The notes below the pieces were generated by a model. That model ran no database searches. It saw only the letters and a program-made list of their open reading frames with translations, and had not been told where the DNA came from. Shown here one piece after another: positions 21,011 to 40,894 of a stretch of 64,000 bases of DNA (within the stretch, counting starts at the first letter, position 1; the number at the start of each line of letters is the position of its first letter). The stretch comes from a virus, in IMG/VR virus record IMGVR_UViG_3300028840_001508, positions 32,962 to 96,961 of that record, one strand, 5' to 3'. Made by a program: the position numbers and the translations under genes.

Positions 21011-21381
21011 TGTGTAAATGGGGTACAGATAAGCAAGTATTAGTTAAAATACCGACAGATCTATCATCTACAGGCGCAGTAGAATGGAAATACAAAAAGA
21101 TAGATTTCTGCATAGCCGATATAGTACAGGCATTACAACGAGCAGGAATAGATATGCGGGGAAGCTGCTGTGGACATGGTAAAACATACGGACATATTCA
21201 CTGCCAGGACGGGCGTATCTTGCTATTACTTCAGGGGAAAAATGCAGATGATTACTATACCCATAGAACTCGACTATTTTTATCTCTCTTTGTCAGGCAG
21301 TTGAGTTGGGTCTCCTTGAGATATCCATATCGCTTGATAAAGGACTTACTGCATTATCTGAGGAATACAAATGACATCTGA
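21010..21381 (+). CDS. Hypothetical phage protein
   Basis: ID.CIADIVQAL..AGI...GSCCGHGK motif. Confidence 0.55.
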   Translation: MCKWGTDKQVLVKIPTDLSSTGAVEWKYKKIDFCIADIVQALQRAGIDMRGSCCGHGKTYGHIHCQDGRILLLLQGKNADDYYTHRTRLFLSLFVRQLSWVSLRYPYRLIKDLLHYLRNTNDI

Positions 21382-22003
21382 ATATATAGCACAAATAGTC
21401 AACAAATGTGACCATTATCTTCGCCCTGAAGAAGCCCGGATACTCTACCAGACGGCAACAGACATCGGCGCAAAGAGGCTGCTGGAAATAGGTGGCGGGG
21501 CTGCGTGTTCATCGGCTATTCTGGCGACTGTAGCTATGGAGAACAACGGTTTGCTGCTTACAGTGGAGATAAGCCCGCGAAGTGACTGGAAGGCGAACCT
21601 GGCTGATTTAGGGCTGGCTGAATATGCGAAGCTGGTAGAAGCCGAATCGCCGTGGGTGAATATCGACGCCAGGATGGTGAGTCTGGACTATCTATTCGTA
21701 GACGGCAATGGGCGCATGAGGTGGGTGCTTGCTGACTACCATTTCTTCAGCAAGTTTGTCAGGGTAGGCGGGAGGATCGCTTTCCACGACTGGTGTGGCG
21801 GGCGGCATTCACCAGATGGTGTAAAGCGGGCGGTAGGGGCGATACTTGAAACCGATGACCTGAAGGAGGTGGCGATCAGTGAGGCAGAGAAGCAGGGGCT
21901 TATCGTGTTTGAGAAGATGAGCGATAGGCTGGATTTGCCGGACGAGAACGGGGTGTATGCAGCAAGGCCGGTGAGGGCAGTAGGAAGCTGGTTGGGTAAC
22001 TGA
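21371..22003 (+). CDS. Class I SAM-dependent methyltransferase (Methyltransf_24-like), copy 1
   Basis: LLEIGGG.A.S; DYLFVDG; VRVGGRIAFHD. Confidence 0.85.
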   Translation: MTSEYIAQIVNKCDHYLRPEEARILYQTATDIGAKRLLEIGGGAACSSAILATVAMENNGLLLTVEISPRSDWKANLADLGLAEYAKLVEAESPWVNIDARMVSLDYLFVDGNGRMRWVLADYHFFSKFVRVGGRIAFHDWCGGRHSPDGVKRAVGAILETDDLKEVAISEAEKQGLIVFEKMSDRLDLPDENGVYAARPVRAVGSWLGN

Positions 22004-22015
22004 AAAGGAGAAGCC

Positions 22016-22657
22016 ATGACAGATGCAGAAATACAGGACATCCGGATCCACTGTAACAAATCCATGAGGCTGGAAGAGGGGCGCATACTCTATGACACAG
22101 CAAGCGAGATAAAGGCGAAGTGCATATTGGAGATAGGCGGCGGGGCTGGTACGTCCACGTCGCTTCTGGGAACGGTAGCTAAAGAGAATGATGGCAGATT
22201 GATTACTGTGGAACCTAACCCCCGCCAGTCGTGGTTTGATAACCTGAAACGGCTTGGCATAGAAGAGTACGTGGAGTGCGTCCAGGCAGAGTCACCGTGG
22301 CTACGTGCAGGCATAGAGCCTATCGACTATCTGTGCATCGACGGTTCTGGCATCATGCGATGGGTGTTGGTGGACTACCACTACTTCGCCCCGTTTGTGC
22401 GCGTAGGTGGGCGGATAGCGTTTCACGATTGGTGTGGTGGGGTAATGTACCCACATGGCGTCAGGCGAGCCGTAGCGGTGATAATGGAGACTGACAGCAA
22501 GATACTGAAGGAGATAGCAAGGAATGAAGATTCGCCGAGACAGGGGATCGTCGTATTTGAGAAGGTGAGAGAATGCCCGTTCGTTGGTATGGAGCAAATG
22601 TTGAAGCAGCAACGCAAGCAGTTACAGTCGGAAACCTGCACAGAGCAGGGGCATTGA
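22016..22657 (+). CDS. Class I SAM-dependent methyltransferase (Methyltransf_24-like), copy 2
   Basis: ILEIGGGAGTS; DYLCIDG; VRVGGRIAFHD; tandem paralog of copy 1. Confidence 0.85.
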   Translation: MTDAEIQDIRIHCNKSMRLEEGRILYDTASEIKAKCILEIGGGAGTSTSLLGTVAKENDGRLITVEPNPRQSWFDNLKRLGIEEYVECVQAESPWLRAGIEPIDYLCIDGSGIMRWVLVDYHYFAPFVRVGGRIAFHDWCGGVMYPHGVRRAVAVIMETDSKILKEIARNEDSPRQGIVVFEKVRECPFVGMEQMLKQQRKQLQSETCTEQGH

Positions 22658-22953
22658 TACAGGGAACGGCAAAAGAGTTATGCCCTGTAAAGACAGGCAA
22701 TCTCAAAAGCAAGATAACTTATGAGGTTGATGAGGTAGAACTGAAGATGCGGGAAGGCAGTAATGTCATCTATGACCCCTTTGTCGAATTGGGGAGTAGC
22801 CGCAGTCCCGCACAGCCGCATCATGTACCAGCTTTAGAAGCCAACTTTCCGGCGATAAAAGAGATGTTCCATAATATCAAGCTGGACACAGCAAAGGCGC
22901 ATGAAATACGCAGGGCTACACTTGGCGCATACATTGAAAGACTGGCAGGATAA
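22573..22953 (+). CDS. HK97 gp10-like neck protein
   Basis: AKELCPVKTGNLKS.I...Y..FVELGSSR.PAQP...PA. Confidence 0.85.
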   Translation: MPVRWYGANVEAATQAVTVGNLHRAGALIQGTAKELCPVKTGNLKSKITYEVDEVELKMREGSNVIYDPFVELGSSRSPAQPHHVPALEANFPAIKEMFHNIKLDTAKAHEIRRATLGAYIERLAG

Positions 22954-23348
22954 TGGACGCACTATTCGACGCTATACAGGCAAAATACACGGCAAACAGC
23001 ACTCTGTCAAGCGCGCTATCAGGCGGCCTGCACAGGATAGAAGCCAAGCAGGATGCAAGCTACCCATTCGCCGTCTATTCCATGCCTTCTGACGTGACGG
23101 AATACACGTTTGACACCGAATGGGAGAACATGCTGATACAGTTCAGCATCTATCACGATGGACGTTCTGATGCTACTGTCCAGGACTGCTACACCAAGCT
23201 GAAGACAGTGTATGATTTGTGTACGCTATCCATCAGCGGTTATACGCAGGTTGTCATGGCGAGAGAATGGCAGAATTTAATACGGGAAGAAGATGTCTGG
23301 CAGTATAGCGTTAGATACAGGGTGAGGTTCTACAAGGCGAGGTCATGA
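22953..23348 (+). CDS. Tail terminator/completion protein
   Basis: Position; A.Q...YPFAVY...QFSIY pattern. Confidence 0.7.
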   Translation: MDALFDAIQAKYTANSTLSSALSGGLHRIEAKQDASYPFAVYSMPSDVTEYTFDTEWENMLIQFSIYHDGRSDATVQDCYTKLKTVYDLCTLSISGYTQVVMAREWQNLIREEDVWQYSVRYRVRFYKARS

Positions 23349-23451
23349 TAGAGACATACTTTCTATATTTTGTTTTCCTATTAGCTGCTTTTGTCTGTGG
23401 CATGAGGGTACAGCGATTTTTTGATAAGAGGAAATGAAAAGGAGAGAAAGC

Positions 23452-23781
23452 ATGATAAACTTGCTGGATGAAACGGTAGATGCGCTGATGGAGCATGGCA
23501 AACATCCCTCTGAAGTTCTATGGGTAGGGAATAGCGAATGGCATACAACGTGGGATGCCTTTACTAAAGTAGCGAACAGGCGGTATGATGACGGACTCGG
23601 TAGGGAAGAAGTCAACGGAGATCTAATGATAGTCGGACAGGACTGGTGGCTAGAGCGCAAAATCTATGATGGTCAAGAGGAATGGGCATTCAAAACGCAG
23701 CCCAAACTTCAGGGCAAGAAATCTACAGGGCCGCCTTTAGTCAATTGGCTTATATGGAAGGAGAGCAGGGACAGCGAATGA
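23452..23781 (+). CDS. Hypothetical phage protein
   Basis: NLL.ET...L......V.W...YD.G.G..E...DL.IVG.DWWLER..YDG.E.W. Confidence 0.55.
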   Translation: MINLLDETVDALMEHGKHPSEVLWVGNSEWHTTWDAFTKVANRRYDDGLGREEVNGDLMIVGQDWWLERKIYDGQEEWAFKTQPKLQGKKSTGPPLVNWLIWKESRDSE

Positions 23782-24131
23782 AAACAGTTCTCTGCATAGG
23801 ACGCTGGCAGCCGCTTCACAAGGGACATATCAAGCTTCTGACCGACGTGATAAGGGAGGGGAATTTTCTCGTAGTCGGGATCAGGGACACGCGGGCGGGA
23901 GATCCCCGTGAGAATCCATACACAGTCAAGCAACGTAGGCGGATGATAAAGAACGCACTGGGCAAGTACAAAGACAGGTACGCTATAGCTGTTATCCCCG
24001 ACTACTGGTGTGACCTGGAAGTGAGGATAGGGCGCAAGGTCGGGTATAAGGTACAGCGGTATGACGTGGATGTTGAGGATATATCAGGTACGAAGACGCG
24101 GGAAGTGTTGAGAAGAAAGGGGAAGCTGTGA
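23778..24131 (+). CDS. HIGH-motif nucleotidyltransferase (cytidyltransferase-like; candidate sulfate adenylyltransferase)
   Basis: IGRWQPLHKGH, NPY, IGRKVGY, ISGTKTR. Confidence 0.8.
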   Translation: MKTVLCIGRWQPLHKGHIKLLTDVIREGNFLVVGIRDTRAGDPRENPYTVKQRRRMIKNALGKYKDRYAIAVIPDYWCDLEVRIGRKVGYKVQRYDVDVEDISGTKTREVLRRKGKL

Positions 24132-24721
24132 AAATCGAGACGAAGGACGGATTGGCGCTATCTGATAATATAATAGAATCACGACGCAGACTGGCATATA
24201 TGCTAATTACTTTCGATGCCCTGTGTGAATTGTTCAAGGATAGAGAAATACACGTAAAGGTCGAAAGTAGTTTGCCTGCTGATGCCAAGTTAATTCATAT
24301 CGCTTGGGATACGGATCGGGCGATGGTTAGGCTGTATTTTGAGAGTAAAGATTTCCCTGTAGTTGAGCCGTATGAGATTGTAACTCATCACATAAAGCCA
24401 TTATTCCACTATATAGATATTGACTAGAGACACTTATAGAAAGGGGAAGTTATGAAGCTTGAGGAATGTAAACAGCAACTAGGCAAAATAATGAGGGTTC
24501 TTTCTCTACGCCCCAATCCTTGCTTGCAGTGTCCACTGGCTATCAAGGATGCTGATGGAGGTGTCTATACTCCTATTGTCGGGGATGGTATGTGTGGAAT
24601 ATGTAACAGAGGTACATGGGAGATAGGTGATCGCAGTATAGAGGTAGAGGGCGAAACTATACCGATGTGTCGTGAATGCGAAGTAATGCTCAAAGAATTG
24701 ATAGTGAAAGGTGGGTTATGA
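24128..24721 (+). other. Two short hypothetical ORFs (24128-24427, 24452-24721)
   Basis: ORF track; RBS present. Confidence 0.5.
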
Positions 24722-25149
24722 TAATCTGGCTAACAGCTAACAGTGGCGCAGGCAAGACCACCATCGGCAAGCAACTGGCATACCGTAACAACGGTATATT
24801 GCTTGACGGTGATGACATGCGCGCAAGCATCTCACTCGGAGCGGGCTTCAGTAAGGAAGAGCGGGAGGAACACAACCTGCGAGTAGCGAGGCTGGCGAAG
24901 GTCATGGAAGCGCAGGGCAAGCTTGTCATAGTGTCGGTGATAGCACCATTCAAGGACACGCGATCGAAGATAGATAAGATGATATGTCCCGTGTGGATAT
25001 ATCTCGTATCAGCCATCCGAAGCCAACCGACGAAGGAGCGACCGTATCAAATACCCGGCAACGCATCACTGGTAATAGATACAGATATGATGAAGCCGCT
25101 TGATGCGGTGTGTATGATAGAGTCGCAGATATTGAGGAAGTATTGGTAA
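24718..25149 (+). CDS. cysC: Adenylyl-sulfate (APS) kinase
   Basis: IIWLT..SGAGKTT, LLDGDDMR, GFSKEER..HNLRVA..AK, VIVSVIAPF...R. Confidence 0.9.
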   Translation: MIIWLTANSGAGKTTIGKQLAYRNNGILLDGDDMRASISLGAGFSKEEREEHNLRVARLAKVMEAQGKLVIVSVIAPFKDTRSKIDKMICPVWIYLVSAIRSQPTKERPYQIPGNASLVIDTDMMKPLDAVCMIESQILRKYW

Positions 25150-25856
25150 TGCCACACGCATTCTTTATAACAGGTACAGGCAGGTCAGGAACAACCACTC
25201 TTGCAGCCTTGCTCAATACCGACCCACAAGCTGCCGTCTACCATGAACCACACGGCAACGAGGGCCAGGCATGTATACAGGCATACTGCTCAGAGATGGC
25301 AGCTACGGCGTATATTGAGAAGCGCAGGGAGTGGATAGCCACGCATCTGAACACTGGCCTGAACTACGGCGAAGTCAACGGCTATCTGCGCTTTCATGCC
25401 GATGCACTCAGGCAAGCGGGCTACCCCGTCTACCAGATAATCCGTGACGGCAGGGACGTGGTACGGTCGGGCTATTCCCGTAATACATATAAGTTCGGAC
25501 ACATGACCTGTATGATAGAGCCGAAACCTGGCGATCTGTGTTTCTACGACTGGCTGTCTATGACACGGTTTGAGAGAATATGCTGGCACTGGCAGATGGT
25601 GAATGAGTATCTGGCAGACAGGGTGGAGGATGTGCTGAAGTTTGAGGATATGATCGGCAACTGGGAGGCGGTCTATTGGTTCACACGGCAGATCGGGGTA
25701 GACGTAGATAAAGAGACGTGGAAAAAGAAGCCCGTCAGGAATGCCACTATCAAACATAGCTTGCCTGTGTATGACAAGTGGGACATGCATCTGAAGGATA
25801 GCTTCTGGCGGATATGTGGCGACACTATGGCGAAGTTTGGGTATGAAAGGAGATAG
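25149..25856 (+). CDS. Sulfotransferase-family protein 1
   Basis: FFITGTGRSGTT (5'-PSB loop), HEP, IRDGRDVVRS (3'-PB), KFED. Confidence 0.85.
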   Translation: MPHAFFITGTGRSGTTTLAALLNTDPQAAVYHEPHGNEGQACIQAYCSEMAATAYIEKRREWIATHLNTGLNYGEVNGYLRFHADALRQAGYPVYQIIRDGRDVVRSGYSRNTYKFGHMTCMIEPKPGDLCFYDWLSMTRFERICWHWQMVNEYLADRVEDVLKFEDMIGNWEAVYWFTRQIGVDVDKETWKKKPVRNATIKHSLPVYDKWDMHLKDSFWRICGDTMAKFGYERR

Positions 25857-25858
25857 GG

Positions 25859-26320
25859 ATGGAAGATATAGAACGATATAGTAACAGTTCACAACGCAAC
25901 TTGGAAGATTACCCCATAGACTTTGATGGTAAACCCTATCAGAGCAATATAGAGGTGCTACTAAACTACGATGACTTAGCACAACTACTCCATCTAGCAG
26001 AGGAATATAGAATTCTAAGGATAGCTATAGAGCCAAAGGTTGATCAGATCGCTATTGTCATAGAAGGCCCTGATCTGTATCAAAGAACAGCAGGTAGCCA
26101 AAGAGTGCGAGATCATGAGGCTATAGCGAGACTACTATTAGGCAGAAGCCGTACATTCCGGCCAGACACAGATGTTCGCCATCGAGTAGTAGATCAGCGA
26201 TGGCTCTGGCTTCTGGATTTTCTGGAAGACCCGCTAATCAAAGCTAACTGGAAGCGATTTGTTGAAATGAAGAAAGGAGATAGGGATGTCCCTGACACTC
26301 ATAATCGGCGCATCATTTAG
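25859..26320 (+). CDS. Hypothetical protein
   Basis: ORF track; RBS. Confidence 0.5.
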   Translation: MEDIERYSNSSQRNLEDYPIDFDGKPYQSNIEVLLNYDDLAQLLHLAEEYRILRIAIEPKVDQIAIVIEGPDLYQRTAGSQRVRDHEAIARLLLGRSRTFRPDTDVRHRVVDQRWLWLLDFLEDPLIKANWKRFVEMKKGDRDVPDTHNRRII

Positions 26321-26894
26321 CGGCACATCCATGATTGCCCACGTATGCCATGCTAATGGCGCATGGATGGGTGAGATACTGACAGAGCCGCCAGAGGAAT
26401 ACAGGGAGTCACAACACTATGATTTGTATGAGAACATCACGTTCCGTAGCTTATGCCGCAATGCACTAAACATCGACACCGAGATAGACAAGAAATCACT
26501 AGACAAGCTATTCAAGGCGTTCTTCGTGTCACTACCGACTGACAGTGAATGTGTGGTTCTGAAGTACCCCAAGGCATTCTATCTGCTGCCTGCGCTGCGT
26601 GATAAGTTGCAGGTAGAGCCGAAGCTAGTCAATGTCATACGCAATCCCTTCAGGCGGGCATTTAGCTACGTTCAGCGGACGCAGGTATTCAATGTCCCGT
26701 ATGCGCTGATGGAGTGGGATCAGGCATACATGCAGGCGGCAGAAGCCACAGACGGGCTGGATATGTATACGATTCTGTATGAGCGGTTCCTGAAAGAGCC
26801 AGAGATGGAAGCAAAACAACTGTTTGACTTCATTGGCTTGAAGCCTGAGAAGGTGGACGTGAGCATGGTAGATACGGGGAAGAGGCACTTTTGA
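26286..26894 (+). CDS. Sulfotransferase-family protein 2
   Basis: IIGASFSGTS, LKYP, IRNP...A.S, YE.FL..P...A..L..F.GL. Confidence 0.8.
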   Translation: MSLTLIIGASFSGTSMIAHVCHANGAWMGEILTEPPEEYRESQHYDLYENITFRSLCRNALNIDTEIDKKSLDKLFKAFFVSLPTDSECVVLKYPKAFYLLPALRDKLQVEPKLVNVIRNPFRRAFSYVQRTQVFNVPYALMEWDQAYMQAAEATDGLDMYTILYERFLKEPEMEAKQLFDFIGLKPEKVDVSMVDTGKRHF

Positions 26895-27152
26895 AAAGGA
26901 GAAGTCATGCTGATACGAAAGAAGAGACTAGATGAGCTAGAGAAGCGGGTAGGTGTATTGGAGAACACCATAGATGAACTCTGGAAACGCATGGATAGAG
27001 ACAGATTGGAATGCAACCTACCGCATTTGAGTAAAGAAAGCGTAGAAGGAATAGTAAGACAGCATATAATACCAGTTATAAGAGACATGGAAAACAAGAA
27101 GTAGTATAACAGTCCCGTTTATAAGAACGGCAAGCGTATAGATAACGTAGAT

Positions 27153-27227
27153 TGGGCAGTCGCCAAACGGTAAGGCATCGGCCTGTTAAGCCGACAAATG
27201 CAGGTTCGATTCCTGCCTGCCCAGCCA
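27153..27227 (+). tRNA. tRNA-Asn(GTT), CCA encoded
   Basis: Acceptor TGGGCAG/CTGCCCA, G73, CCA; anticodon arm TCGGC-CTGTTAA-GCCGA; T arm GCAGG-TTCGATT-CCTGC. Confidence 0.95.
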
Positions 27228-27243
27228 GATAAAGGAGAACAAT

Positions 27244-27603
27244 ATGTCAAGCGTAGATGTGGAAATCAAACCAGGTTGCGAAGAACTATTCGACCGAGTT
27301 GCTAATATGCTAAACGCTGCAAGTGCAAAAGCCAAGCGAATCCAATCTCTACCGCCGAAGAATTTGCAACAGATAGAGGTAGACACTTTTTATATCGAGA
27401 AAGTAGCCGAATTTGAAAATGGAATGCCTTTTAGCCCTGTTATCGGTTATCACTGGGAATGCAGTATTCCTGGCGTTCTAATAAAGGATGTAGCTGTATG
27501 GGATCATAAGGTATATGTTGAACTAAGTGAGGACTCCCTACGCCCTGTCATTTCTGAATTTTCTAAGGGGAAAATAGGCAGTGGTGACTGGATTTTCGTA
27601 TAG
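27244..27603 (+). CDS. Hypothetical protein
   Basis: RBS AAAGGAG. Confidence 0.5.
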   Translation: MSSVDVEIKPGCEELFDRVANMLNAASAKAKRIQSLPPKNLQQIEVDTFYIEKVAEFENGMPFSPVIGYHWECSIPGVLIKDVAVWDHKVYVELSEDSLRPVISEFSKGKIGSGDWIFV

Positions 27604-27687
27604 ATAGCATCTAACACAACTTCATATCAACACAAAAACGGGTCAGGAGAAGCAGACTGCACTCGTTTTTTTTGTTTCCCTGACCGC

Positions 27688-29847
27688 TTGAAAGGGCATA
27701 CAGTGGATATTCTCGTAGTAATGACAGAAGGCATAGGCAACATGGTCATGATGACGCCTGCGCTACAGGCAATGAAGCAGGCGCGTCCAGAGTGCAATAT
27801 CACCGTCCTGTGCAAAGAGCCAGCGGCAAGCGTGATCAGGGGATGGGATGTGATAGAGCGCGCCATATCAAGGCTAGGACAACGCAGGTACGATATAGGC
27901 TTTCTCTCCATCTGGTCTGGCAAGTACAAGACAGAATACCGTGACAGGCTGGGAAGCAAGTGCAATGAGGTAATAGAGATAGACTACGAGGATATAGAAA
28001 AGCACGAGGCAGAATATCACCTGGACATGGCATGCTATCTGGAATACGAGGGGGATCTACCCGACACTTTCTGCATGTCTGAGGATGTCCATATCAAGCA
28101 TGATAAGCCCCTGGCGGCGTTGTCCGACACCTGCCTGCCGCTTCAAGCCTGGCAACGTAAGCGATGGCCGTATTACCCCGCTCTGGCAAAGATGCTGATA
28201 GCGAAGGGCTTTGACGTATGTTTGATAGGCGGGAAGTCCGAGGCAGAAGCATTCAATCCAGGCGACTGGCCGGATGGGGTAATCAACTGCCTGGGGAAGT
28301 ACACCATCCCCCAGACAGCGGGCTTGCTGGGGCAGTGCAACGTCTTTGTAGGGAACGACTCAGGGCCAGCACACATTGCCGCCGCTATGGGATGCAATAC
28401 ATTTGTATTGTTCGGCCCTACGCTGGTAAAGAAGAACAAGCAACTGGGCAGGAATGTGGTATTACTGACACGACAACTGGAATGTTCACCGTGTCAATAT
28501 ACCGCCCGCTGGCAATACTGCCATCAGTTTGACTGTATGCTTGCCATATCGCCTACGGACGTAATGCAGGCGATAGATGCAAATACGCATGAGGGCGGTG
28601 CTACGGCGGAGCGGCTAAAGCTTTCTGTCTGCATGATAGTGAAGAATGAAGAGGCCATGCTTGCGGGGTGTCTTGATAGTGTTAAGGACATAGCGGATGA
28701 GATTATCGTAGTAGATACGGGCAGCACTGACAGGACAATGGAGATCGCTCAGGGATATGAAAAGGTCAAGCTATTTGAGCATCCCTGGGAGGACTCGTTC
28801 AGCGTCGCACGTAACCAGGCCATCAGTCACGCAACAGGCGACTGGATATTGCAGATAGACGCTGATGAGAAGCTGGAAAAAGATGATATACCCGTACTCA
28901 TGACCACCATCCAGAAGGCGCAGAGAGCACAGATAGGTGCAGTCAGATGTCCCCATTGCAGTAGAAAAATTGTAGACGAAAAATGGGTTCATGCCTTCAA
29001 GCTGGAGTTCCTGAACTACCTGGCAGATGGCGTTTCCTGGCACGCTTCGGAGAGACTGTTCAGGAACGGACATATAGAGTTCAAATGCCGCGTCCACAAT
29101 CAGCCACATTACGACGGCATAGTAGCCCCGTCCATCCCCGTGAAGCTGCATCACTATGGCTATAACCTTGATAAAGCCACCATGCAGAAGAAGTACGAGC
29201 GCACAGAGCGGCTTCTGAAAATCTCCATCGAAGAAACACCCATAGGAGATAAGCAACTGGGCTTCTTCTACCAGAACCTCTTGCGCAACTTCCGGGCGCA
29301 GTATAAATGGGATGAGCTGGTAGAGACGGCAGATAGGATGTTTGCCATGATGGAAGCAGGAGAGATCACGCCATCCAGCCAGACCGAGCAGTTGTCGATG
29401 ATAGACTACGTGTTCGGACTGGTGAAGCAGGAGAAGCCGATGGAGGCACTCATGGCTGTTGACTTGCTTGTAACGAAGCACCCGCTCATGATAGACGGCT
29501 GGTATCACAAGGCGCTGATACATTCGGCACTGGGACATCACGGCGAGGCTATAGCTGCATACGACTCATATTTGAAGTACAAACGGCAACTGGAAGCCAT
29601 GCCGCAGAAGCCCGTGCTGATCCTAGATACCTGGGGCGGGGAAGCTACGGCATATAACAATATGGGCTGCGCGTACTTCTACGTCAACGACCCCGGCAAT
29701 GCACTTTTACACTTCGGGATAGCGGCGAAGATGGACCCGGATAATGAAGGATTCAAGAATAACGTAAACCAGGTACTAGGTGCGATACTGGAGAACTTCA
29801 ATAAACAACAGCGAAAGGAGCCAACGACTGAGGAGTTGAAATACTAA
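27688..29847 (+). CDS. GT9 (heptosyltransferase-like) + GT2 + TPR fusion glycosyltransferase; start may be GTG at 27703
   Basis: GIGNMVM.TP...KRWP...GNDSGPAHIAAA...LFGPT (GT9); LSVCMIVKNEE...VDTGSTD.T...W..DFS.ARN...DADE (GT2); helical TPR-like C-terminus. Confidence 0.9.
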   Translation: MKGHTVDILVVMTEGIGNMVMMTPALQAMKQARPECNITVLCKEPAASVIRGWDVIERAISRLGQRRYDIGFLSIWSGKYKTEYRDRLGSKCNEVIEIDYEDIEKHEAEYHLDMACYLEYEGDLPDTFCMSEDVHIKHDKPLAALSDTCLPLQAWQRKRWPYYPALAKMLIAKGFDVCLIGGKSEAEAFNPGDWPDGVINCLGKYTIPQTAGLLGQCNVFVGNDSGPAHIAAAMGCNTFVLFGPTLVKKNKQLGRNVVLLTRQLECSPCQYTARWQYCHQFDCMLAISPTDVMQAIDANTHEGGATAERLKLSVCMIVKNEEAMLAGCLDSVKDIADEIIVVDTGSTDRTMEIAQGYEKVKLFEHPWEDSFSVARNQAISHATGDWILQIDADEKLEKDDIPVLMTTIQKAQRAQIGAVRCPHCSRKIVDEKWVHAFKLEFLNYLADGVSWHASERLFRNGHIEFKCRVHNQPHYDGIVAPSIPVKLHHYGYNLDKATMQKKYERTERLLKISIEETPIGDKQLGFFYQNLLRNFRAQYKWDELVETADRMFAMMEAGEITPSSQTEQLSMIDYVFGLVKQEKPMEALMAVDLLVTKHPLMIDGWYHKALIHSALGHHGEAIAAYDSYLKYKRQLEAMPQKPVLILDTWGGEATAYNNMGCAYFYVNDPGNALLHFGIAAKMDPDNEGFKNNVNQVLGAILENFNKQQRKEPTTEELKY

Positions 29848-30209
29848 TGGCTCACGTATCAGGCAAGACTGGAGGCGTTACCGCCACTAACTTTGCCACA
29901 GGAGCATATAACTGGTCTCTTGACTGGACTGCTGACGCTTTGGAGACGACCGACTATGGCAGCTCAGGGCAGAGGGAATATATTGCAGGACTCACAGGCG
30001 GCAGCGGAACGTTTGTCGTCCGTGGCGACGCGGCAAGCAATACCGCATCAGTAGGAACTACAGTGGCGTTGACGCTTACCATCTCGTCAGGTAAGGCTTA
30101 TACCATGACAGCCCTGATCACAGGCAAAGGCGAAACAGTGCCCGTGGACGGGCTTCACGAAACCACAGTCAGCTTCGTGGCAACTGGTTCTATAACAAAG
30201 CCGGCATAA
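29847..30209 (+). CDS. Tail tube protein 1
   Basis: WSLD...D.LETTD......EYIAGL..GSG...VPVDG.....SF..TG. Confidence 0.8.
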   Translation: MAHVSGKTGGVTATNFATGAYNWSLDWTADALETTDYGSSGQREYIAGLTGGSGTFVVRGDAASNTASVGTTVALTLTISSGKAYTMTALITGKGETVPVDGLHETTVSFVATGSITKPA

Positions 30210-30222
30210 GGGGTGATCGCTA

Positions 30223-30897
30223 ATGGCACACGTCGCAGGAATGACAGGAGCGGTATACGCCCGTAAGTTTTACACGAAGGCGGCGACTATCTCCTTTGCC
30301 GATACAAACCCGGACACGATCCTTGACAGCGCAGCGGGCTTTAGCGGTGCTGAGGCTGGCGACTATGTGACTGTCTCAGGCGCAGCGCAGGCGGGTAATA
30401 ACGATACGTTCCTCATAGGGACAGCATTACCCGCCACGCTGACGCTGGATGCAGGGGAAACGCTGACTGCTGAAGCGGCGGGGGCGACTGTAACCGTCTC
30501 CCAAGCACTGCCCTATGAGCAGCTTCTGGGCTTCAACGGCATAGACCTGAATCTGGAAGCCGTGGAGCTTGAGACGACGGACTTTACCGACGTAGGCGCA
30601 TCAACACCCGGCAGGCATTATATAGCAGGTCTGACCAGCTTCAATGCCACCTGTACACACTGGTGGGCATCCACTGACCTGCTGGGGTCATGGACTGGCG
30701 CAAAGAAGTACGTCGCCTTTTTCGTGAAGTATAACAGTGCGCCGGCAACAACCACCTGCTATTACTATCATGGCTACGTGATTACGACAGGGCTGGATAC
30801 CAGCGCACCTGTTGACACAGTAGTAGCACAACCGTTGACGCTTCAAGGAACGGGAACCATAACATCGGCAACGGCGACAACCGCCTGGCCGACATAA
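30223..30897 (+). CDS. Tail tube protein 2 with an inserted ~80-aa domain
   Basis: Same MAHV.G.TG start and LETTD...YIAGL motif; extra A/T-rich segment. Confidence 0.75.
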   Translation: MAHVAGMTGAVYARKFYTKAATISFADTNPDTILDSAAGFSGAEAGDYVTVSGAAQAGNNDTFLIGTALPATLTLDAGETLTAEAAGATVTVSQALPYEQLLGFNGIDLNLEAVELETTDFTDVGASTPGRHYIAGLTSFNATCTHWWASTDLLGSWTGAKKYVAFFVKYNSAPATTTCYYYHGYVITTGLDTSAPVDTVVAQPLTLQGTGTITSATATTAWPT

Positions 30898-31590: not shown

Positions 31591-31595
31591 TATAG

Positions 31596-31986: not shown

Positions 31987-32015
31987 TTGACTTTTGACCT
32001 CTTTTGTGTTATAAT
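31987..32015 (+). promoter_or_regulatory. Sigma70-type promoter of the HTH/HNH moron
   Basis: TTGACT-17bp-TATAAT with extended TG. Confidence 0.8.
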
Positions 32016-32079
32016 TGTTTATAATTATTTATAATTGATATTATCTAGTTATTTTCAATTATAATGCAAGGAGGTTAAG

Positions 32080-32259: not shown

Positions 32260-32263
32260 GCAG

Positions 32264-33292: not shown

Positions 33293-33336
33293 TCAATCAT
33301 ATTCAATAACATTTAGGTAAAATATAATAGTTTGTA

Positions 33337-33382
33337 AAAGAGGAGACATGCAGTATACCTGCTGTCTCCTCTTTTTTATTTT
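33337..33382 (+). terminator. Intrinsic terminator after the HNH moron
   Basis: AAAAGAGGAGACA...TGTCTCCTCTTTT followed by TTATTTT. Confidence 0.7.
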
Positions 33383-33389
33383 CAAGTAG

Positions 33390-36300: not shown

Positions 36301-37343
36301 AGGACATAGCGCGACGGAAGTTAGCTGAGTTGATAGCTGACAAAGCTTTCGATGCGCTTGCTGCTGTATTTGTAGGAAAAGGCACTACTACAACAACCAG
36401 TACCGATGAGCTAGGGCGGATCATGGGCTATGCGGCGAAAGAGGAAGCGGCGGCAGCAAAGGCCACAAAGAAAGCAGCGAAGGATCTGAGTTTGGCATCA
36501 GGTAATTTCCTGACCAGCATTAGCCAGATGGGGGTCATACTCGGATCGCTTGAGGTTATCGGCGGCCTTGCAAGTGCGGTCGCTGGCGGCGGCCCAAGGC
36601 ATTATGCGCAAGTGACACCTGCAAGTGTGAAGATTACCGAGGAATCCAGAGAGATGCTGCGGTTCATGGGCAAGTCTGAAGCGGCTATTGATAATCTTGA
36701 GAGGACTTTGACTGAGCAGTATGCTAATGACATAGCATCGCTAAGAGATCAGATAATATTTTTCAGCAAGCACATGGCGACTACCCAGGGCGGCATCAAG
36801 GCGGGCATAGACGAGCTAAACGCCAGCACAGAAGAGATGTGTAACGTCTTCATCGGCGGCCAGGCGCAGCAGATGACCAAGACCGAGCTTGCGTCTGTGC
36901 TGGAGTCATTGACAGGCGGCATTCCGAGGGAATTGGGCAAGTACGGCAGGATGGACTTCAACATCCCGCCACTTCCACCAGCCATGCCCGTATCAACTAT
37001 TCCAGATGAACTAAAAGCGGCAGCGGCAGCGGTGCAATCCTCATTTGCATCCGGTATAGGCGTGCCGTCCAGCGTCCTGAAGTTCAAGGACACGGCGATG
37101 AACCTGGCATTTCCTGAGCCATCAGTTCCGACTATCACATACGCACCAGGCGCAGCCCCCCCCGGTTCAGTGCAAGCCCCCGCGCGACAGACAGTGGTGG
37201 ACAACATGAAAGTGGAGATAGTCTTTCCCAACGCCGACATAATGCACATGAGCAGGGGTGACGTGGAAACGGTGGTCAGAACAAAGATACTGCCCGCCTT
37301 GCGTGATGTAGAACGCTCAGGGCATAGCAGCAGGATATACTGA
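33390..37343 (+). CDS. Tail tape measure protein (TP901-like core)
   Basis: FEQQM...T.FSA.EAA.AM..LA.AG...LDLAAA...YVGPVA...G..LEETAA..G...AGTSLR; 1317 aa, helical. Confidence 0.95.
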   Translation: MVKILLAEAFVEVSASTSKLKTGLQSARRQTETAIGKMEQTVKGFSSQLRVAGIAATAMGGAITGALALSIKTAAGFEQQMANTSSVLGGTTDQISKQQKQLGNYAREMARQTVFSAREAAGAMYHLASAGMATEEIMKSLKGTLDLAAATASGLDEATATVASTLKQYALDASEAERVSNIFSATISSSMATMDKLTASMSYVGPVAKSVGMTLEETAAILGKIYDAGIPASMAGTSLRMAMAKLSKPTKDVKNALKEMQLTVTDASGNLRPFIEIIRDLGDANMTTAQAMALFGTRAGPSMLALVSQGAASIDVLREKITGTSKATEMAERQVSTFQGQLTILRSAFEELQITVGTHFLPLLTDLVKRVKSIVDAMANWAKAHPTLTNALMKMAAVLGPMLAAGGVLMIMAPTLLSVAKAASVLAVGLSSTLVPAIKAAGAALIWLSAHPVVAAAGALTILGTALALYVSKGEDAKRVTQELVDTYSNLQNLSEIEIDVKIDKAEKSLARLSKKIWDLHERYTKVMEVYAKADGGIFGISKSEAGSVVAFVEKDLRKVQAEYDELAAALGKLKTAQEDYTYAIVRASDVSIAATEKDMRAIGEKIWKLRETEAHYKRMAETAVGQKMTKHWETGLESVRSKLEAALAEYAAADKKYQGMIASINTYNAALAGTAESTKDIKPPTEAVTGSLSDLQDILTAANLSFADLGVKLETDTGAMRTFGEVVVDTSAALKSLLKEGIAPPPPTIAGISAMMKGFAETRPEEAAKKQAEAVGKIAEGLQKELATFKWGAFVKGPEGELRFVDTRQMAKDKAEAEKLFADIDKAFAKRQDTFKDAMILRGKLFEYVKEVAAKNTKASYEAWQDMSDAIGKLIDATAKKKEKADADELKRLKSLQEKIQEAISDAKKAEVDATEKAKQVNIKAWEEQYDYVRNELRSVQYAFEDMLTGLMSGMDSFRDTWKAFWADLKDIARRKLAELIADKAFDALAAVFVGKGTTTTTSTDELGRIMGYAAKEEAAAAKATKKAAKDLSLASGNFLTSISQMGVILGSLEVIGGLASAVAGGGPRHYAQVTPASVKITEESREMLRFMGKSEAAIDNLERTLTEQYANDIASLRDQIIFFSKHMATTQGGIKAGIDELNASTEEMCNVFIGGQAQQMTKTELASVLESLTGGIPRELGKYGRMDFNIPPLPPAMPVSTIPDELKAAAAAVQSSFASGIGVPSSVLKFKDTAMNLAFPEPSVPTITYAPGAAPPGSVQAPARQTVVDNMKVEIVFPNADIMHMSRGDVETVVRTKILPALRDVERSGHSSRIY

Positions 37344-37355
37344 GGAATGATGTAA

Positions 37356-37751
37356 ATGGCAGACGTGATGAAGCTAAAGAAAGGGGCAACCGAGGTCAAT
37401 TTCTCCCCGCTTGCCAGGGAAGGTGCATACCTGGAGCCAGAGGACCAGGGAAGGGTAACGCATCTGACACTGGATAAGACTGTCTATCAATATGACTTTG
37501 CTGATAAGTACCTGAAAAGCGTCACGATCAACAATATGAGCCAGAATAACGCAGGCACGATCAAAAACTGGTTTAAGGCAGGAAGCACCATCAAATACTT
37601 TCCCGACATGATAAATGCGGCATCAACGAGCATCACCGTGAAGATCATGGGCGAGAGATTCCCGCTTCAGATCATGCCCGAAGGCGGCTGGCGCGAGAGC
37701 GAGTGGGCGACATGCAAGTATACGGGTACGCTGATACTGAGGGAGGCGTAG
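37356..37751 (+). CDS. Probable distal tail protein
   Basis: Position after the tape measure; C-terminal YTGTLILRE. Confidence 0.6.
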   Translation: MADVMKLKKGATEVNFSPLAREGAYLEPEDQGRVTHLTLDKTVYQYDFADKYLKSVTINNMSQNNAGTIKNWFKAGSTIKYFPDMINAASTSITVKIMGERFPLQIMPEGGWRESEWATCKYTGTLILREA

Positions 37752-38855
37752 ATGGCTGCCAGTGCAAGCTTCAAGGCATTAGCGGATGCGACATACGCAA
37801 AGCCCAGGGTGCGGTTCAAGTTTGACGACGTGAATTATAGTGACTATGTGCTAAAGATAGGGCAGATTAGCAGGGATACAGAGGTAACGGCGGGCAATGT
37901 CAATATTGATGTGGTAAATACCGATCAGACCTTTAACATCCTGTCATCTACACCGACGAAGCTAGGCAACTATGCACAGGTGGAACTGTATTTCCCCGGC
38001 TTGTCAGAATATGAATCGCTATTTAAGGGAACATTGGAAAAGGCGATATTCAATACAGATGGTACTGTTACACTGCAATGCAGGGACAGGATGGCGACTA
38101 TGCTGGAGAAGCCGATAGGCTACGGCACAGCGCCCGTGACATTTGCAGCAACCGGCCCTGCATCGCTAGTCTGGGATATATTGACTAATACTAATTATGG
38201 CGAATTGAACAGTGGCACTACCACAGGCAACCCGGATATAGACTACACTAGCTGGACTAACTGGCGTACTAGCATGAACAGCCAGTCGTTTAAGCTGGCG
38301 GCGCGATCGGCAGGGGCCAGCATCAGGGAGTTATTGCAGTTAATAGCTGACCTGACTAATTCTCTGATCTGGGTAAATGGCGATGGCAAGTTCGACTTCC
38401 AGTGGAGCTTCTACAGCAATGACAGGCTCTTCACCCGGTCAAACTGTCTGGCTATCAGTAGGGACATAGAAGAGGAATCACTGGCAAATACAGTGGGTGC
38501 TGGCTACGGATATGATACTGACACAGGCTTCTGGGCGGGACTGACTTCATCTTCCAGTGTATCCAGCCAGGACGACTACGGCAAGAAAGCCGTATACTTC
38601 GAGAATAAGACCGTGTGGCACGCCACGTCTACCAGCGCATCCAACTTCTGCACGGGCTACCTTGCATTGCATGATGCGCCTATAGAGCATATATATCTCA
38701 CTTCTACGCTATATGGCTATACAGCGTATATAGGCGGCGACGTGCGGGTTACGGATAGCTTGCTGGATATTAGCACAGCTAGTTTGAGGATAGAGGAGAT
38801 AGACGGTATAGATGTCAACAAGGGGCTTATCTACCTGAGCGGGAGACTGATATGA
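37752..38855 (+). CDS. Probable baseplate hub/Tal-like protein
   Basis: LFKGT......VTL.CRD; LLQ.IA.......WVNGDGKF.F; N.V...Y; SQ..YG. Confidence 0.7.
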   Translation: MAASASFKALADATYAKPRVRFKFDDVNYSDYVLKIGQISRDTEVTAGNVNIDVVNTDQTFNILSSTPTKLGNYAQVELYFPGLSEYESLFKGTLEKAIFNTDGTVTLQCRDRMATMLEKPIGYGTAPVTFAATGPASLVWDILTNTNYGELNSGTTTGNPDIDYTSWTNWRTSMNSQSFKLAARSAGASIRELLQLIADLTNSLIWVNGDGKFDFQWSFYSNDRLFTRSNCLAISRDIEEESLANTVGAGYGYDTDTGFWAGLTSSSSVSSQDDYGKKAVYFENKTVWHATSTSASNFCTGYLALHDAPIEHIYLTSTLYGYTAYIGGDVRVTDSLLDISTASLRIEEIDGIDVNKGLIYLSGRLI

Positions 38856-39283
38856 GGCGAAGATATCCAGAAGTAGGCAGGCGAGCGCACGAAGATGACC
38901 CTTATGCCCATCACGTTCAGAGCAAGATATATGCTATCAAGGTCTATGCTCATGATGGTGCTCTTTCCGCCGGCGACGGTGCTACTTATGAAGCCATACC
39001 TTCATACCTGAATGGGATGAAACTGGTATGTGCAGAGGCCCATGTATTTACAGCCTCCAGCAGCGGAACAGTAAGTGTGATGATACACAACTATACTGAT
39101 ACTGTGGACATGTTAAGCAGTACGATAGATATAGCTGCAAGCGCAAAGCATACAACAACAACGGCTGTAGATACAGATAATAATACTGTCGCTACGGGTG
39201 ACGAAATACGCGTGGATATAGATGGCGCTGGAACCGGATCAAAGGGTCTGATGCTATTTCTAACCTTCAAGCGGTATAGCTAG
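38852..39283 (+). CDS. Tail-associated structural protein
   Basis: V..GD.IRVDID.AGTG.KGL motif; position. Confidence 0.55.
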   Translation: MRRRYPEVGRRAHEDDPYAHHVQSKIYAIKVYAHDGALSAGDGATYEAIPSYLNGMKLVCAEAHVFTASSSGTVSVMIHNYTDTVDMLSSTIDIAASAKHTTTTAVDTDNNTVATGDEIRVDIDGAGTGSKGLMLFLTFKRYS

Positions 39284-39292
39284 GGGCAGACA

Positions 39293-40894
39293 ATGAAGGA
39301 GAGGAAGCTGGTACTGACTATTGCAGTCGGGGAGGCATATCAGAAGATAGCTGAGTATACGCATCCGACACTGAAGCGATACGCTGACCATATCGGCGCA
39401 GACTTCATAGTGATAGATGAATCTAATAGCAGTACACCACACTGGGAGAAGTTCCAGATATGCCAGTTATTGAACCAGTATGACCGCATCATCTATTTGG
39501 ACACAGATCTGATAGTGAGAGATGATTGCCCTGATCTGTTTGAGATAGTTCCGAAGTTCAAGCTAGGCATGTTTAACGAAGCGCAGTTTACGGGTGGACG
39601 AATGATAGCACTGCACGATATCTGCAATGAATACGGTGAAACGCTGCCTGACTGGAACGGGAAGTATTATAACAGCGGGGTCATGGTCATATCAGCGCGG
39701 CATAACAGGCTGTTCCGAAAGCCAGAAAAGGAAGTCTCCCACTTTCACGAGCAGAGTTATCTCAATATGATGATAGCTAAAGAGAAAATAGATATGTTTG
39801 ACCTGGAATATCAGTTCAATAGGATGTCGTGTATGGACAGGTTCACAGGCGAAGACCGCTTTGCTTCATATATCATCCATTACGCAGGGCTGGAAGGGCG
39901 TATGGGTATGCCATTCGTCCAGAACCTCATACCCCAGGATATAGCCAGATGGGAAATGGATTCACCCGAATATGAGTATCAGCATCACATACTGATTGAC
40001 GTTCAGGGTGGCTTAGGCGACCAGGTATGCGCCGAACCAGCAATACGCTTTATCAAAGAGAATATTTACACTGATGATGATATAAATGTAGTGACACACT
40101 TCCCGCGTATCTTCCAGCATCTTGGCTTACCTGTATTCAAACACGGTGAGTTCAGGCGGAAGCCCGACACGCCATACTATTCTATGCTTTCCCTGCCAGG
40201 GCCGGATAAGCCTATGTGGGCTTTTGTCTCGAACCTGCTCTGTCACACAATAGATTACTGCGCTATGGCTCTGATGCGTCAGACATTGCCAGTGAATGAC
40301 AAGCGCGTGCAGTTGACCTATTCCCTCGATGACGTATCAAGGGCGATAGAGGTGATAGGCATCCGCAACCTGAATGAGCTTGTGCTGGTACATCCTGGAA
40401 GGCACTGGCAGAGCAAGACGTTTCCCGCTGGTTGGTGGCAATCGCTGATCGACGGTTTACATAACGCTGGACTGCCTGTTTGCCTTATTGGTTTTGATGA
40501 GTGCGAGGTAGTGGGTCTGGCTGATATAGAGACAAGGGAAGGTATGATAGATACACGGGACAGGCTTGACCTGGGGGCGTTGATAGCCTTGATAGCGAAT
40601 GCAAAGATAGTTATTTCAAATGACAGCAGCCCGATTCACATAGCGGGCGCATTCGACAACTGGATCTTCCTGATCCCGACGTGCAAGCATCCCGACCATC
40701 TTCTCCCCTGGCGGCATGGTTCGCAGAACTACAAGACACGATGCTTCTACAAGAAGCTGGCATGTCAGGAATTTGACAGCAGACCGACTACAGTGCATGG
40801 GTCAAGCGGTGAATTCACCAAGTCCAGAATACTAGAATATTTGCCAGATATAAGCAATATTGTCAAAATAACTAAGAAAATTGTAGGAGCATAG
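39293..40894 (+). CDS. GT8-like + GT9-like fusion glycosyltransferase
   Basis: YDRIIYLDTD...YYNSGVMV...EQSYLN...IHYAG; GGLGDQV; ISNDSSPIHIAGA. Confidence 0.85.
   Translation: MKERKLVLTIAVGEAYQKIAEYTHPTLKRYADHIGADFIVIDESNSSTPHWEKFQICQLLNQYDRIIYLDTDLIVRDDCPDLFEIVPKFKLGMFNEAQFTGGRMIALHDICNEYGETLPDWNGKYYNSGVMVISARHNRLFRKPEKEVSHFHEQSYLNMMIAKEKIDMFDLEYQFNRMSCMDRFTGEDRFASYIIHYAGLEGRMGMPFVQNLIPQDIARWEMDSPEYEYQHHILIDVQGGLGDQVCAEPAIRFIKENIYTDDDINVVTHFPRIFQHLGLPVFKHGEFRRKPDTPYYSMLSLPGPDKPMWAFVSNLLCHTIDYCAMALMRQTLPVNDKRVQLTYSLDDVSRAIEVIGIRNLNELVLVHPGRHWQSKTFPAGWWQSLIDGLHNAGLPVCLIGFDECEVVGLADIETREGMIDTRDRLDLGALIALIANAKIVISNDSSPIHIAGAFDNWIFLIPTCKHPDHLLPWRHGSQNYKTRCFYKKLACQEFDSRPTTVHGSSGEFTKSRILEYLPDISNIVKITKKIVGA

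Follow-up and report, generated by a model that had tools for sequence, protein, structure and literature searches.

A candidate late-gene cassette for sulfated, methylated glycosylation of virion proteins in an uncultured siphophage

In mycobacteriophages of clusters O and F, phage-encoded soluble glycosyltransferases and an O-methyltransferase modify capsid and tail-tube proteins at the C-termini of the subunits, according to the parts of PMC11600133 and PMC12619734 that cite this work (Freeman et al. 2023). The late genes described here resemble that system in their enzyme content. They differ in that they lie inside the neck and tail module, in that their lead enzyme, a GT2-TPR protein like GmaR and SunS, is fused to a GT9 domain, and in the addition of two sulfotransferases and a pair of enzymes for PAPS supply; moreover, the host of the present phage is not shown to be an actinobacterium.

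The lead enzyme has its own relatives outside phages. GmaR of Listeria monocytogenes is a flagellar anti-repressor and glycosyltransferase in which the glycosyltransferase domain is followed by TPRs (PMC3150276), and it acts in the cytoplasm on the subunit of a helical polymer. It is the best solved relative of the GT2 part of the phage protein (PDB 22ao, E 1.3e-27) and shares the order GT2 then TPRs, although the phage protein carries an extra N-terminal GT9 domain and has no anti-repressor domain for binding MogR. The peptide S-glycosyltransferases SunS and ThuS (TIGR04195; PDB 7msp, 7msk) likewise combine GT2, with a DxD motif, and helical repeats; in the phage, unlike the SunS system, no gene for a precursor peptide of the sublancin type was recognised.

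For the PAPS-supply pair, the models are the bifunctional PAPS synthases and the Sat-CysC pairs or fusions, in which APS kinase has a HIGH-superfamily nucleotidyltransferase (NT) as its coupled or fused partner. In the family of the phage NT, both domain orders occur and the genes adjoin PAPS users. Here, however, the NT is only about 110 aa long and NadM-like, whereas the Sat domain PF01747 is a 212-position model. With NadM (M. jannaschii MJ0541, PDB 1f9a; M. thermautotrophicum, PDB 1ej2) it shares the motifs GR(F/W)QP(F/L)HxGH, NP(F/Y)T and IS(G/A)TxxR and 27-30% identity over 81 aligned columns. It differs from NadM in the family-specific invariants R36, G85-R86 and G89, and in that its genomic partners, rather than being NAD genes, are APS kinase and sulfotransferases.

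The window analysed here is a 64,000-nt stretch of an uncultured 97-kb tailed phage. It carries eight such enzymes, as a sequence-only reading had noted; they lie on a single strand at the coordinates given, and the identities proposed in that reading hold by Pfam, NCBIfam and the protein atlas. The features, in window positions, are as follows.

19443..20666, +, head-tail adaptor, upstream border of the block (phrog_442, E 7e-23)
20663..21381, +, two small ORFs (115 aa; 123 aa, Cys/His-rich), no Pfam/PHROG match
21371..22003, +, SAM methyltransferase 1 (MT1), Methyltransf_24 (Pfam E 1.7e-10)
22016..22657, +, SAM methyltransferase 2 (MT2), Methyltransf_24, tandem paralog (Pfam E 1.4e-14)
22654..22953, +, Neck1/tail-completion protein (phrog_5, E 2.2e-9)
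22953..23348, +, tail terminator (phrog_176, E 2.3e-8)
23452..23781, +, phrog_3972 protein (E 1.3e-18), ATGA overlap with NT
23778..24131, +, 117-aa HIGH nucleotidyltransferase, NT (PF01467, CTP_transf_like)
24128..24721, +, two small ORFs (99 aa; 89 aa, Cys-rich), no Pfam or PHROG match
24718..25149, +, compact APS kinase, 143 aa (PF01583, E 3e-20)
25149..25856, +, sulfotransferase 1 (ST1), 235 aa (PF13469, weak)
25859..26320, +, 153-aa ORF overlapping the ST2 start by 35 nt, no family match
26286..26894, +, sulfotransferase 2 (ST2), 202 aa (PF13469, Sulfotransfer_3, E 2.6e-8)
27153..27227, +, tRNA-Asn (GTT) within the block (ARAGORN), flanked by small ORFs at 26907-27104 and 27244-27603
27721..29847, +, GT9 + GT2 + TPR fusion (Pfam), alternative start GTG at 27703
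29847..30209, +, 120-aa tail-tube-like protein (tube120), weakly paralogous to the 224-aa tail protein
30223..30897, +, major tail (tube) protein, 224 aa (phrog_1407, E 7.5e-4)
33390-37343, tape measure (PHROGs)
39293..40894, +, GT8 + GT9 fusion, 3' of the distal tail genes (Pfam)
40897..42006, +, RCC1 propeller protein, seven blades (RCC1, E 2e-70, 7 repeats)

We read this late operon as a putative cytoplasmic kit that makes PAPS and adds sulfated, methylated sugars to the phage's own virion proteins, a reading that we put at roughly even odds (about 0.5) from the sequence evidence. We know of no phage for which this combination, phage-made PAPS and sulfated, methylated sugars on the phage's own particle proteins, has been shown, and no published description of such a kit was found in the literature searched.

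The enzymes are closely knit into the late genes. The proposed coupling through overlapping start and stop codons was borne out for most of the enzymes, with overlaps of 1, 4 or 11 nt. They occur from the adaptor through the 115-aa and 123-aa ORFs to MT1 (-4, -1 and -11 nt), at MT2/Neck1/terminator, and from the phrog_3972 protein through NT to the 99-aa ORF. They are also found at the 89-aa ORF/APS kinase/ST1 junctions (the 99-aa and 89-aa ORFs are coupled through GTGA and ATGA overlaps) and between the GT9-GT2-TPR gene and tube120 (TAATG). Within 19000-38900, terminator-like sites were not in excess of shuffled sequence (15 vs 14.7). No membrane segment was found in any of the eight enzymes, no 19-residue hydrophobic window exceeds 1.53 in any protein of the cassette, and the cassette contains no flippase, polymerase or lipid-carrier enzyme. 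For the proteins that follow the tape measure, called the tail tip in the sequence-only reading, synteny is the sole basis of the placing, and neither PHROGs nor Pfam gave a match.

Part of this arrangement is conserved. In related metagenomic phages a core block of tail terminator, sulfotransferase, methyltransferase, GT9-GT2-TPR and two tail-tube paralogs occupies the same slot at 33-50% protein identity. The phage L136 has the complete core in the order tail terminator (37% identical, immediately 5' of ST2), ST2 (49.5%), methyltransferase (44-47%; 44% for the MT1 homologue, which lies beside ST2 and the glycosyltransferase), GT9-GT2-TPR (38%), tube120 and the 224-aa tube gene, with an adaptor homologue at the matching relative position. 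Partial versions occur in L139, L149, L135 and L137, so the co-occurrence within structural modules of relatives, proposed as a check in the sequence-only reading, was found for a core set. ST2 homologues (42-50% identity) lie immediately 5' of the glycosyltransferase or methyltransferase gene in L136, L139 and L149, directly before the former in L139 and L149. Full-length GT9-GT2-TPR homologues stand immediately 5' of tail-tube genes in L127/L135, L136, L137 and L139, and are followed by two tube genes in L135/L127 and L137. The L136 block lacks NT, APS kinase and ST1, and we therefore regard these three as accessory, which counts against the proposed kit. A 76-aa zinc-ribbon ORF precedes the glycosyltransferase gene in L136.

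The GT2 domain of the fusion (PF00535, 96 bits) contains a DxD motif (D-A-D-E, invariant in A4) and is followed by repeats that match TPR_1, TPR_2 and TPR_8. As anticipated for GT2-TPR proteins, the closest relatives of this half are protein or peptide glycosyltransferases; in the PDB, GmaR is followed by SunS and a ThuS-like entry (2e-18). The SunS family model matches at E 3.5e-25, but its cut-off is 350 bits and the phage protein reaches 88.7, so that it is not a SunS equivalog. GT9 domains are well above the Pfam cut-off of 22 bits (74.9 and 52.8 bits) but below the equivalog cut-offs of their nearest NCBIfam models, heptosyltransferases I-III; the fusion also matches RfaF in the PDB (1.8e-8). 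Downstream of the glycosyltransferase, the major tail protein is a candidate acceptor by virtue of a conserved Ser/Thr-bearing C-terminal tail, the pattern G-T-G...(S/T)-T-(A/P)-W-P being common to relatives, and tube120 is kept after the glycosyltransferase in relatives. With 22-28% Ser/Thr, the tube proteins do not stand out from other structural proteins, which counts against decoration of the virion. The RCC1 propeller is a second candidate acceptor. Its gene starts 2 nt past the GT8-GT9 gene, and in the unrelated 210-kb phage contig L152 an RCC1 homologue (42% identical) lies 4.3 kb from a GT8-GT9 homologue (48% identical).

The tailoring enzymes are a pair of methyltransferases, rightly called paralogs in the sequence-only reading (55% identical), and two sulfotransferases between which no relationship was detectable. 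Among solved proteins, MT2 is best matched by 6g7d and by entries of O-methyltransferase family 3. Against a Sulfotransfer_3 (PF13469) cut-off of 27 bits, ST2 scores 34.8 and ST1 26.5. Comparison of ST1 with sulfotransferase clusters in the protein atlas (features 0.97; structure TM 0.94 over 235 residues) confirms its predicted assignment as a sulfotransferase despite the weak Pfam score, and it has a 5'-PSB-like TGTGRSGTT and a 3'-PB-like RDGRDVVRS motif.

The APS kinase scores 73.2 bits against a gathering cut-off of 21.1 and has the P-loop, DGDxxR and S-V-I-A-P-F motifs in its translation. It falls short of the TIGR00455 equivalog cut-off (76.5 vs 138.7 bits), and its match covers only model positions 3-96 of 152 in PF01583. 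The lid region is truncated, which counts against PAPS synthesis; cellular APS-kinase partners of the NT family match over the full length, with up to 236 bits. A homologue 50% identical to the phage kinase adjoins an NT homologue in L084.

On its sequence, profile matches and fold, NT is a trimmed NadM-type NMN adenylyltransferase. It has the motifs GRWQPLHKGH (with HKGH) and ISGTKTR, and H14, H17, S103, T105 and R108 are invariant in its family. NadM-type NMNATs are its best matches in NCBIfam, the PDB and the fold search (Foldseek against the PDB gave NMNAT first and PPAT next, with no ATP sulfurylase among the fold matches listed), and hhalign of 67 NT sequences against four haloarchaeal NadM proteins gave a probability of 99.2. 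The Sat catalytic domain PF01747 found no match in NT or elsewhere in the phage genome, and among fused relatives of NT a weak match (1.6e-4) was seen in only 3 of 64; a Sat-type ATP sulfurylase was therefore rejected. This leaves part of the earlier proposal of a minimal ATP sulfurylase standing: membership of the Sat family fell away, while gene context, fusions and phyletic pattern lend strong backing to a role in APS supply. Of 80 viral loci, 77 have an APS-kinase homologue no more than 4 kb from NT (72 via direct tblastn), an APS_kinase domain is present in 49 of the 64 fused family members (best E 9.5e-69), and one protein fuses Sulfotransfer_4 to NT (L066). Sulfotransferases of families 1, 3, 4 and 5 adjoin NT in about 30 viral loci and also in Marinimicrobia and Haladaptatus. 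Across viruses, bacteria and archaea, NT is tightly linked with both APS kinase and sulfotransferases. Neither Sat nor a true CysD was found in the phage genome, nor in five genomes of haloarchaea in which kinase and NT are fused. Because of this adjacency and fusion, and the presence of the family in haloarchaea without Sat or CysD, a minimal ATP sulfurylase is our best reading for NT, as a candidate function.

An NAD role has to be weighed against it, since the nearest characterised relatives of NT are NMNATs and the phage genome encodes a PncB-like NAPRTase. NT would then be an NMN or NaMN adenylyltransferase that completes NAD salvage with the PncB-like enzyme, and APS would come from the ATP sulfurylase of the host. 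We consider this improbable. The scores are far under the NMNAT cut-offs (41.1 vs 181.2 bits for TIGR01527; 46.8 vs 127 bits for NF002243), and NT is about 50 residues shorter than NadM, lacking the core segments after the third strand; the NadM-invariant N-R-N-S-V-W and S-N-N-P-L-V fall in gaps of the hhalign alignment. The tight association with APS kinase also argues against it, as does the presence of a separate housekeeping NadM-like gene in the same archaeal class as a strong NT-kinase fusion, and an isochorismatase-type nicotinamidase was not found in the phage genome.

The target of the cassette is a separate matter. Late in infection it might remodel a glycan of the host envelope (LPS core, capsule or S-layer glycan), masking receptors against loss of progeny on debris, for instance, or excluding other phages, in which case the location among tail genes would mean late expression only. 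The GT9 and GT8 families are classically those of LPS-core transferases, which agrees with the heptosyltransferase and RfaF matches. Cellular NT-kinase-sulfotransferase sets adjoin polysaccharide genes (Wzz, flippase), neighbours that fit glycan rather than protein targets, and the sulfation module of many other phages lies outside the structural genes, beside auxiliary-class glycosyltransferases. Nevertheless we think a host target rather unlikely: membrane proteins, a flippase, a polymerase and an initiating lipid-carrier transferase are all missing from the cassette, its GT2-TPR half is nearest to protein or peptide glycosyltransferases and not to polysaccharide synthases, the sulfotransferase-methyltransferase-glycosyltransferase block holds the exact terminator-to-tube slot at 35-50% identity, and masking of receptors would be of more use early than late. 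Also improbable, in our judgement, are the remaining targets, namely a diffusible small molecule, a glycopeptide of the SunS type, or proteins of phage or host that are not structural, or else PAPS that simply boosts host sulfur assimilation. SunS-family enzymes do glycosylate secreted peptides, and SPbeta yolJ was matched; the block contains small Cys-rich ORFs (24452-24721), as L136 contains its zinc-ribbon ORF; and in Salvo and DLP6, both of them cultured phages, the fusion of kinase and NT lies among early or DNA-metabolism genes with no sulfotransferase nearby. Against this, genes for a peptide precursor, a transporter or immunity were not seen, the presence of two sulfotransferases beside the PAPS genes points to sulfate transfer rather than assimilation, and the conserved adjacency to tube genes would be left unexplained.

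We infer, then, that the acceptor of the cassette enzymes is on the virion, and the steps may be envisaged as follows. Homology and conserved gene order suggest that the GmaR/SunS-like GT2-TPR enzyme would place the first sugar on a Ser, Thr or Cys residue in a subunit of the virion, most likely the two tail-tube paralogs encoded immediately 3' of it, and that further sugars would be added by the GT9 domain and by the GT8-GT9 protein encoded separately beside RCC1. ST1 and ST2 would sulfate, and MT1 and MT2 would O-methylate, that glycan. For the sulfate donor, comparative genomics points to the NadM-derived NT as the enzyme that would adenylylate sulfate (ATP + sulfate -> APS + PPi), and to the compact APS kinase as the one that would phosphorylate the 3'-OH of APS to give PAPS. 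With NT and APS kinase supplying PAPS, we propose, the phage would not depend on sulfate activation by its host.

All of the enzymes named in the sequence-only reading were found, and their identities are near certain. The window runs from base 32962 to base 96961 of an IMG/VR virus record that is complete at 96,961 bp and has direct terminal repeats. A long late operon on the plus strand comprises adaptor, neck, tail terminator, tail tube, chaperone, tape measure and distal tail genes, and the enzyme genes are interleaved with these as listed below.

Enzyme block and structural genes
Just upstream of the window, portal
7697-9010, HK97-type capsid protein
21371-22003 and 22016-22657, plus, MT1 and MT2, methyltransferases (Methyltransf_24 in Pfam), 55% identical to each other
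22654-22953, plus, Neck1, interleaved with the enzymes
22953-23348, plus, tail terminator, interleaved with the enzymes
23778-24131, plus, NT, cytidylyltransferase-like nucleotidyltransferase of 117 aa with HKGH and ISGTKTR motifs
24718-25149, plus, APS kinase (73 bits)
25149-25856, plus, ST1, sulfotransferase, marginal Pfam score, unambiguous in the protein atlas (TM 0.94, full length)
26286-26894, plus, ST2, sulfotransferase (Pfam)
27721-29847, plus, GT9-GT2-TPR fusion
29847-30209 and 30223-30897, plus, tube120 and tube224, tail-tube paralogs directly after the enzymes
39293-40894, plus, GT8-GT9 fusion

Coupling of the enzymes to the neighboring late genes, also claimed from the sequence, held up: most junctions overlap by 1, 4 or 11 nt. 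Terminator-like sites in the region of the block occurred at the frequency expected by chance. No plausible transmembrane segment was found in the block's enzymes, and a membrane-bound polysaccharide pathway was rejected for the lack of hydrophobic segments in the cassette proteins. A role in DNA modification was also rejected, as the glycosyltransferase, sulfotransferase and methyltransferase families are not DNA-modifying types and the phage DNA methylase is encoded elsewhere (44957-46681). The Pfam match of this N6/N4 DNA methylase spans residues 28-551, far more than the 221-position model, which indicates a large insertion. The end of the late region encodes a papain-family cysteine protease, unusual in a phage (46690-47628; Peptidase_C1, E 3.5e-50).

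Two tRNA genes were noted, one for Asn (GTT, 27153-27227) flanked by small ORFs within the enzyme block and one for Thr (TGT, 48490-48562) on the minus strand. A probable mobile insertion (31987-33390) separates the tail chaperone genes from the tape measure gene. A promoter close to consensus (TTGACT-17-TATAAT) is present there, as are a small HTH ORF, a gene for a MerR/HTH protein of 342 aa whose Cys/His motifs are HNH-like, and a strong hairpin with a T-run after it; in the related phages L135 and L127 the chaperone genes lead to the tape measure gene without it.

Among GenBank phages, megablast of the cassette revealed no close relative, and protein searches gave domain-level matches only. 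Viral-contig scans with the glycosyltransferase by itself or with the tail-tube protein returned nothing useful; the adaptor matched once, over a short N-terminal stretch and with no further genes in common, and the APS kinase gave one locus. Relatives were recovered only after the GT9-GT2-TPR protein had been aligned with two full-length homologues. The most complete of the loci described, a 37-kb contig (L136), encodes an adaptor, Neck1, a tail terminator, an ST2 homologue (49.5% identity), a Methyltransf_24 homologue (44-47%), a small zinc-ribbon ORF, a GT9-GT2-TPR protein (38%), homologues of tube120 and tube224, a chaperone and distal tail genes. A Cys-rich 89-aa ORF of our phage was compared with the zinc-ribbon ORF, and the two are unrelated. 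An ST2 homologue lies immediately upstream of the glycosyltransferase in L139 and L149, while the fragments L135/L127 and L137 begin at the glycosyltransferase and run on into two tube genes. Thus, a sulfotransferase-methyltransferase-glycosyltransferase core has held the slot between terminator and tube while its proteins diverged to 35-50% identity. Co-occurrence of the enzyme set within structural modules extends to this core, but the PAPS pair (NT and APS kinase), ST1 and several small ORFs are, within this block, particular to this phage, a pattern that fits a supply module added to an older decoration module.

GmaR (E 1.3e-27) is the nearest match of the GT2-TPR half, ahead of SunS and a ThuS-like entry, and likewise has its glycosyltransferase domain before the TPRs. 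PMC3150276 describes GmaR as a flagellar glycosyltransferase; its naming as an O-GlcNAc transferase comes from work cited therein. The tail-tube proteins of the relatives have in common a short C-terminal tail with Ser and Thr, and mycobacteriophage glycans, according to PMC12619734 and PMC11600133, are carried C-terminally on capsid and tube subunits. The resemblance is no more than suggestive. Ser/Thr content was uninformative as an acceptor signal and did not single out the tube proteins. A protein of 962 aa with three ConA-like lectin domains (Laminin_G_3) is encoded just before the adaptor (16439-19327), and two Ser/Thr-rich head-region proteins (10015-11319 and 11382-13526) have a nearly identical C-terminal motif; these could be fibres of the head or decoration proteins and, in that case, further candidate acceptors. 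A seven-blade RCC1 propeller starts 2 nt after the GT8-GT9 gene. An otherwise unrelated 210-kb phage contig, L152, encodes GT8-GT9 (48% identical) and RCC1 (42%) proteins 4.3 kb apart, so the two may travel as a pair, a recurrence checked at that one locus. The chance that a virion protein is the acceptor appears to us about even.

NT had been proposed as a minimal ATP sulfurylase. It is not a sulfurylase of the Sat type; sequence, profile and fold point to an NMN adenylyltransferase (NMNAT) of the NadM type. Archaeal NMN adenylyltransferase ranked first in NCBIfam, at a score far under the cut-off, and a sequence search of the PDB returned the NMNATs of M. jannaschii and M. thermautotrophicum. 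With 19 sequences as input, residues 77-102 were poorly modelled; a 67-sequence alignment was then used and yielded a confident model (pLDDT 87). The predicted fold was closest to the same two NMNATs, then to PPAT, with no sulfurylase among the matches listed. The 67-member profile aligned with haloarchaeal housekeeping NadM at a probability of 99.2, yet NT is about 50 residues shorter than that enzyme, is without two NadM-invariant segments and belongs to a family with invariant residues of its own (R36, G85-R86 and G89).

The gene partners of NT relate to sulfation. Of 80 viral loci with an NT relative, 77 carry an APS-kinase homologue within 4 kb on the same strand (72 by direct tblastn), usually immediately upstream of NT, and about 30 have a recognizable sulfotransferase (Pfam families 1, 3 or 4). 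NT is fused to a Sulfotransfer_4 domain in a single protein at L066:9329-10330. Many of these loci also encode a DUF2061 membrane protein, on which literature searches found nothing relevant, and a small phosphatase of the HAD type, similar to class B acid phosphatases and to the 3'-phosphatase domain of PNKP. In about 25 loci this HAD phosphatase has its own gene, placed between those for kinase and NT (L037:7422-7772, for example); at L068:2359-3114 it is fused to the APS kinase. Its activity might be that of a PAP 3'-phosphatase or of a pyrophosphatase. When 1.8 billion representatives were searched, the NT family numbered 1101 members at E < 1e-10; an APS_kinase domain was present in 49 of the 64 multidomain members, in both domain orders. 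Cultured phages carry APS-kinase-NT fusions as well, namely Xylella phage Salvo (gp32, L125:6578-7324) and Stenotrophomonas phage DLP6 (AAY80_227, L126:4602-5333), located among early genes and annotated just as 'kinase' or 'hypothetical protein'.

The pair is also found in cellular genomes, adjoining sulfotransferases or polysaccharide genes; in Marinimicrobia single-cell genomes and on a Haladaptatus pallidirubidus plasmid the kinase is a full-length CysC. Among 151 genomes of the haloarchaeal class, strong full-length NT matches lay within fusions in 5, and Sat and true CysD were absent from the five haloarchaeal genomes carrying the fusion. About 73 of the 151 had weak N-terminal matches only, in ORFs of 171-230 aa that we read as housekeeping NadM.

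Sat and CysD were sought across the phage genome and not found. Given this absence, the kinase and sulfotransferase partners and the kinship to NadM, the most economical reading is a NadM derivative that would have lost its nicotinamide-side elements and would now adenylylate sulfate, a role suggested by context. PAPS is probably made by NT together with the APS kinase. NT might instead be an adenylyltransferase serving the phage's own NAD salvage gene, an idea that retains some plausibility given how closely its sequence is related to NMN adenylyltransferases but leaves the gene partners unexplained. Upstream of the window, at genome positions 14628-15494 (L123:1629-2492), lies a PncB-like nicotinate phosphoribosyltransferase gene with both NAPRTase domains, followed by a PP2C phosphatase gene and, further on, an RNA ligase gene; an isochorismatase-type nicotinamidase was not detected in the phage genome.

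Several observations count against decoration of the virion. The GT9 and GT8 families are classically those of the LPS core, NT-kinase sets in cells adjoin polysaccharide export genes, and in many phages the sulfation module sits away from the structural genes, with no sulfotransferase near the fusions of Salvo and DLP6. The tube proteins, moreover, do not stand out in Ser/Thr content. Because of these points, we put the full mechanism, PAPS supply together with decoration of virion proteins, at a probability of about one half. More doubtful is the joint reading in which NT, at about 110 residues and derived from NadM, represents a third, unrecognized class of ATP sulfurylase that serves phages, marine bacteria and haloarchaea in which Sat and CysDN are missing, and in which the tail tube, perhaps with the RCC1 propeller, bears a sulfated, methylated O-glycan.

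Glycosylation of actinobacteriophage virions changes antibody recognition, and to our knowledge virion glycosylation has so far been documented solely in that group. The kit described here would work like that of the mycobacteriophages; it would add sulfation with a self-contained donor supply and, as lead enzyme, a GT2-TPR protein of the flagellin type joined to GT9. In our literature searches we met no account of a sulfated virion, of PAPS modules in phages or of a small sulfurylase resembling NadM. An ATP sulfurylase of 110 residues would close the sulfate-activation gap where APS kinase and sulfotransferases occur without Sat or CysDN, and would offer a component of very small size for making PAPS enzymatically. 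A sulfated tail-tube glycan would bring virion glycosylation to another phage group, with new chemistry, and would be the first known sulfated virion among prokaryotic viruses. Sulfated and methylated, it would give the particle a strong negative charge, affecting its adsorption, stability and aggregation as well as how immune or defence systems recognize it.
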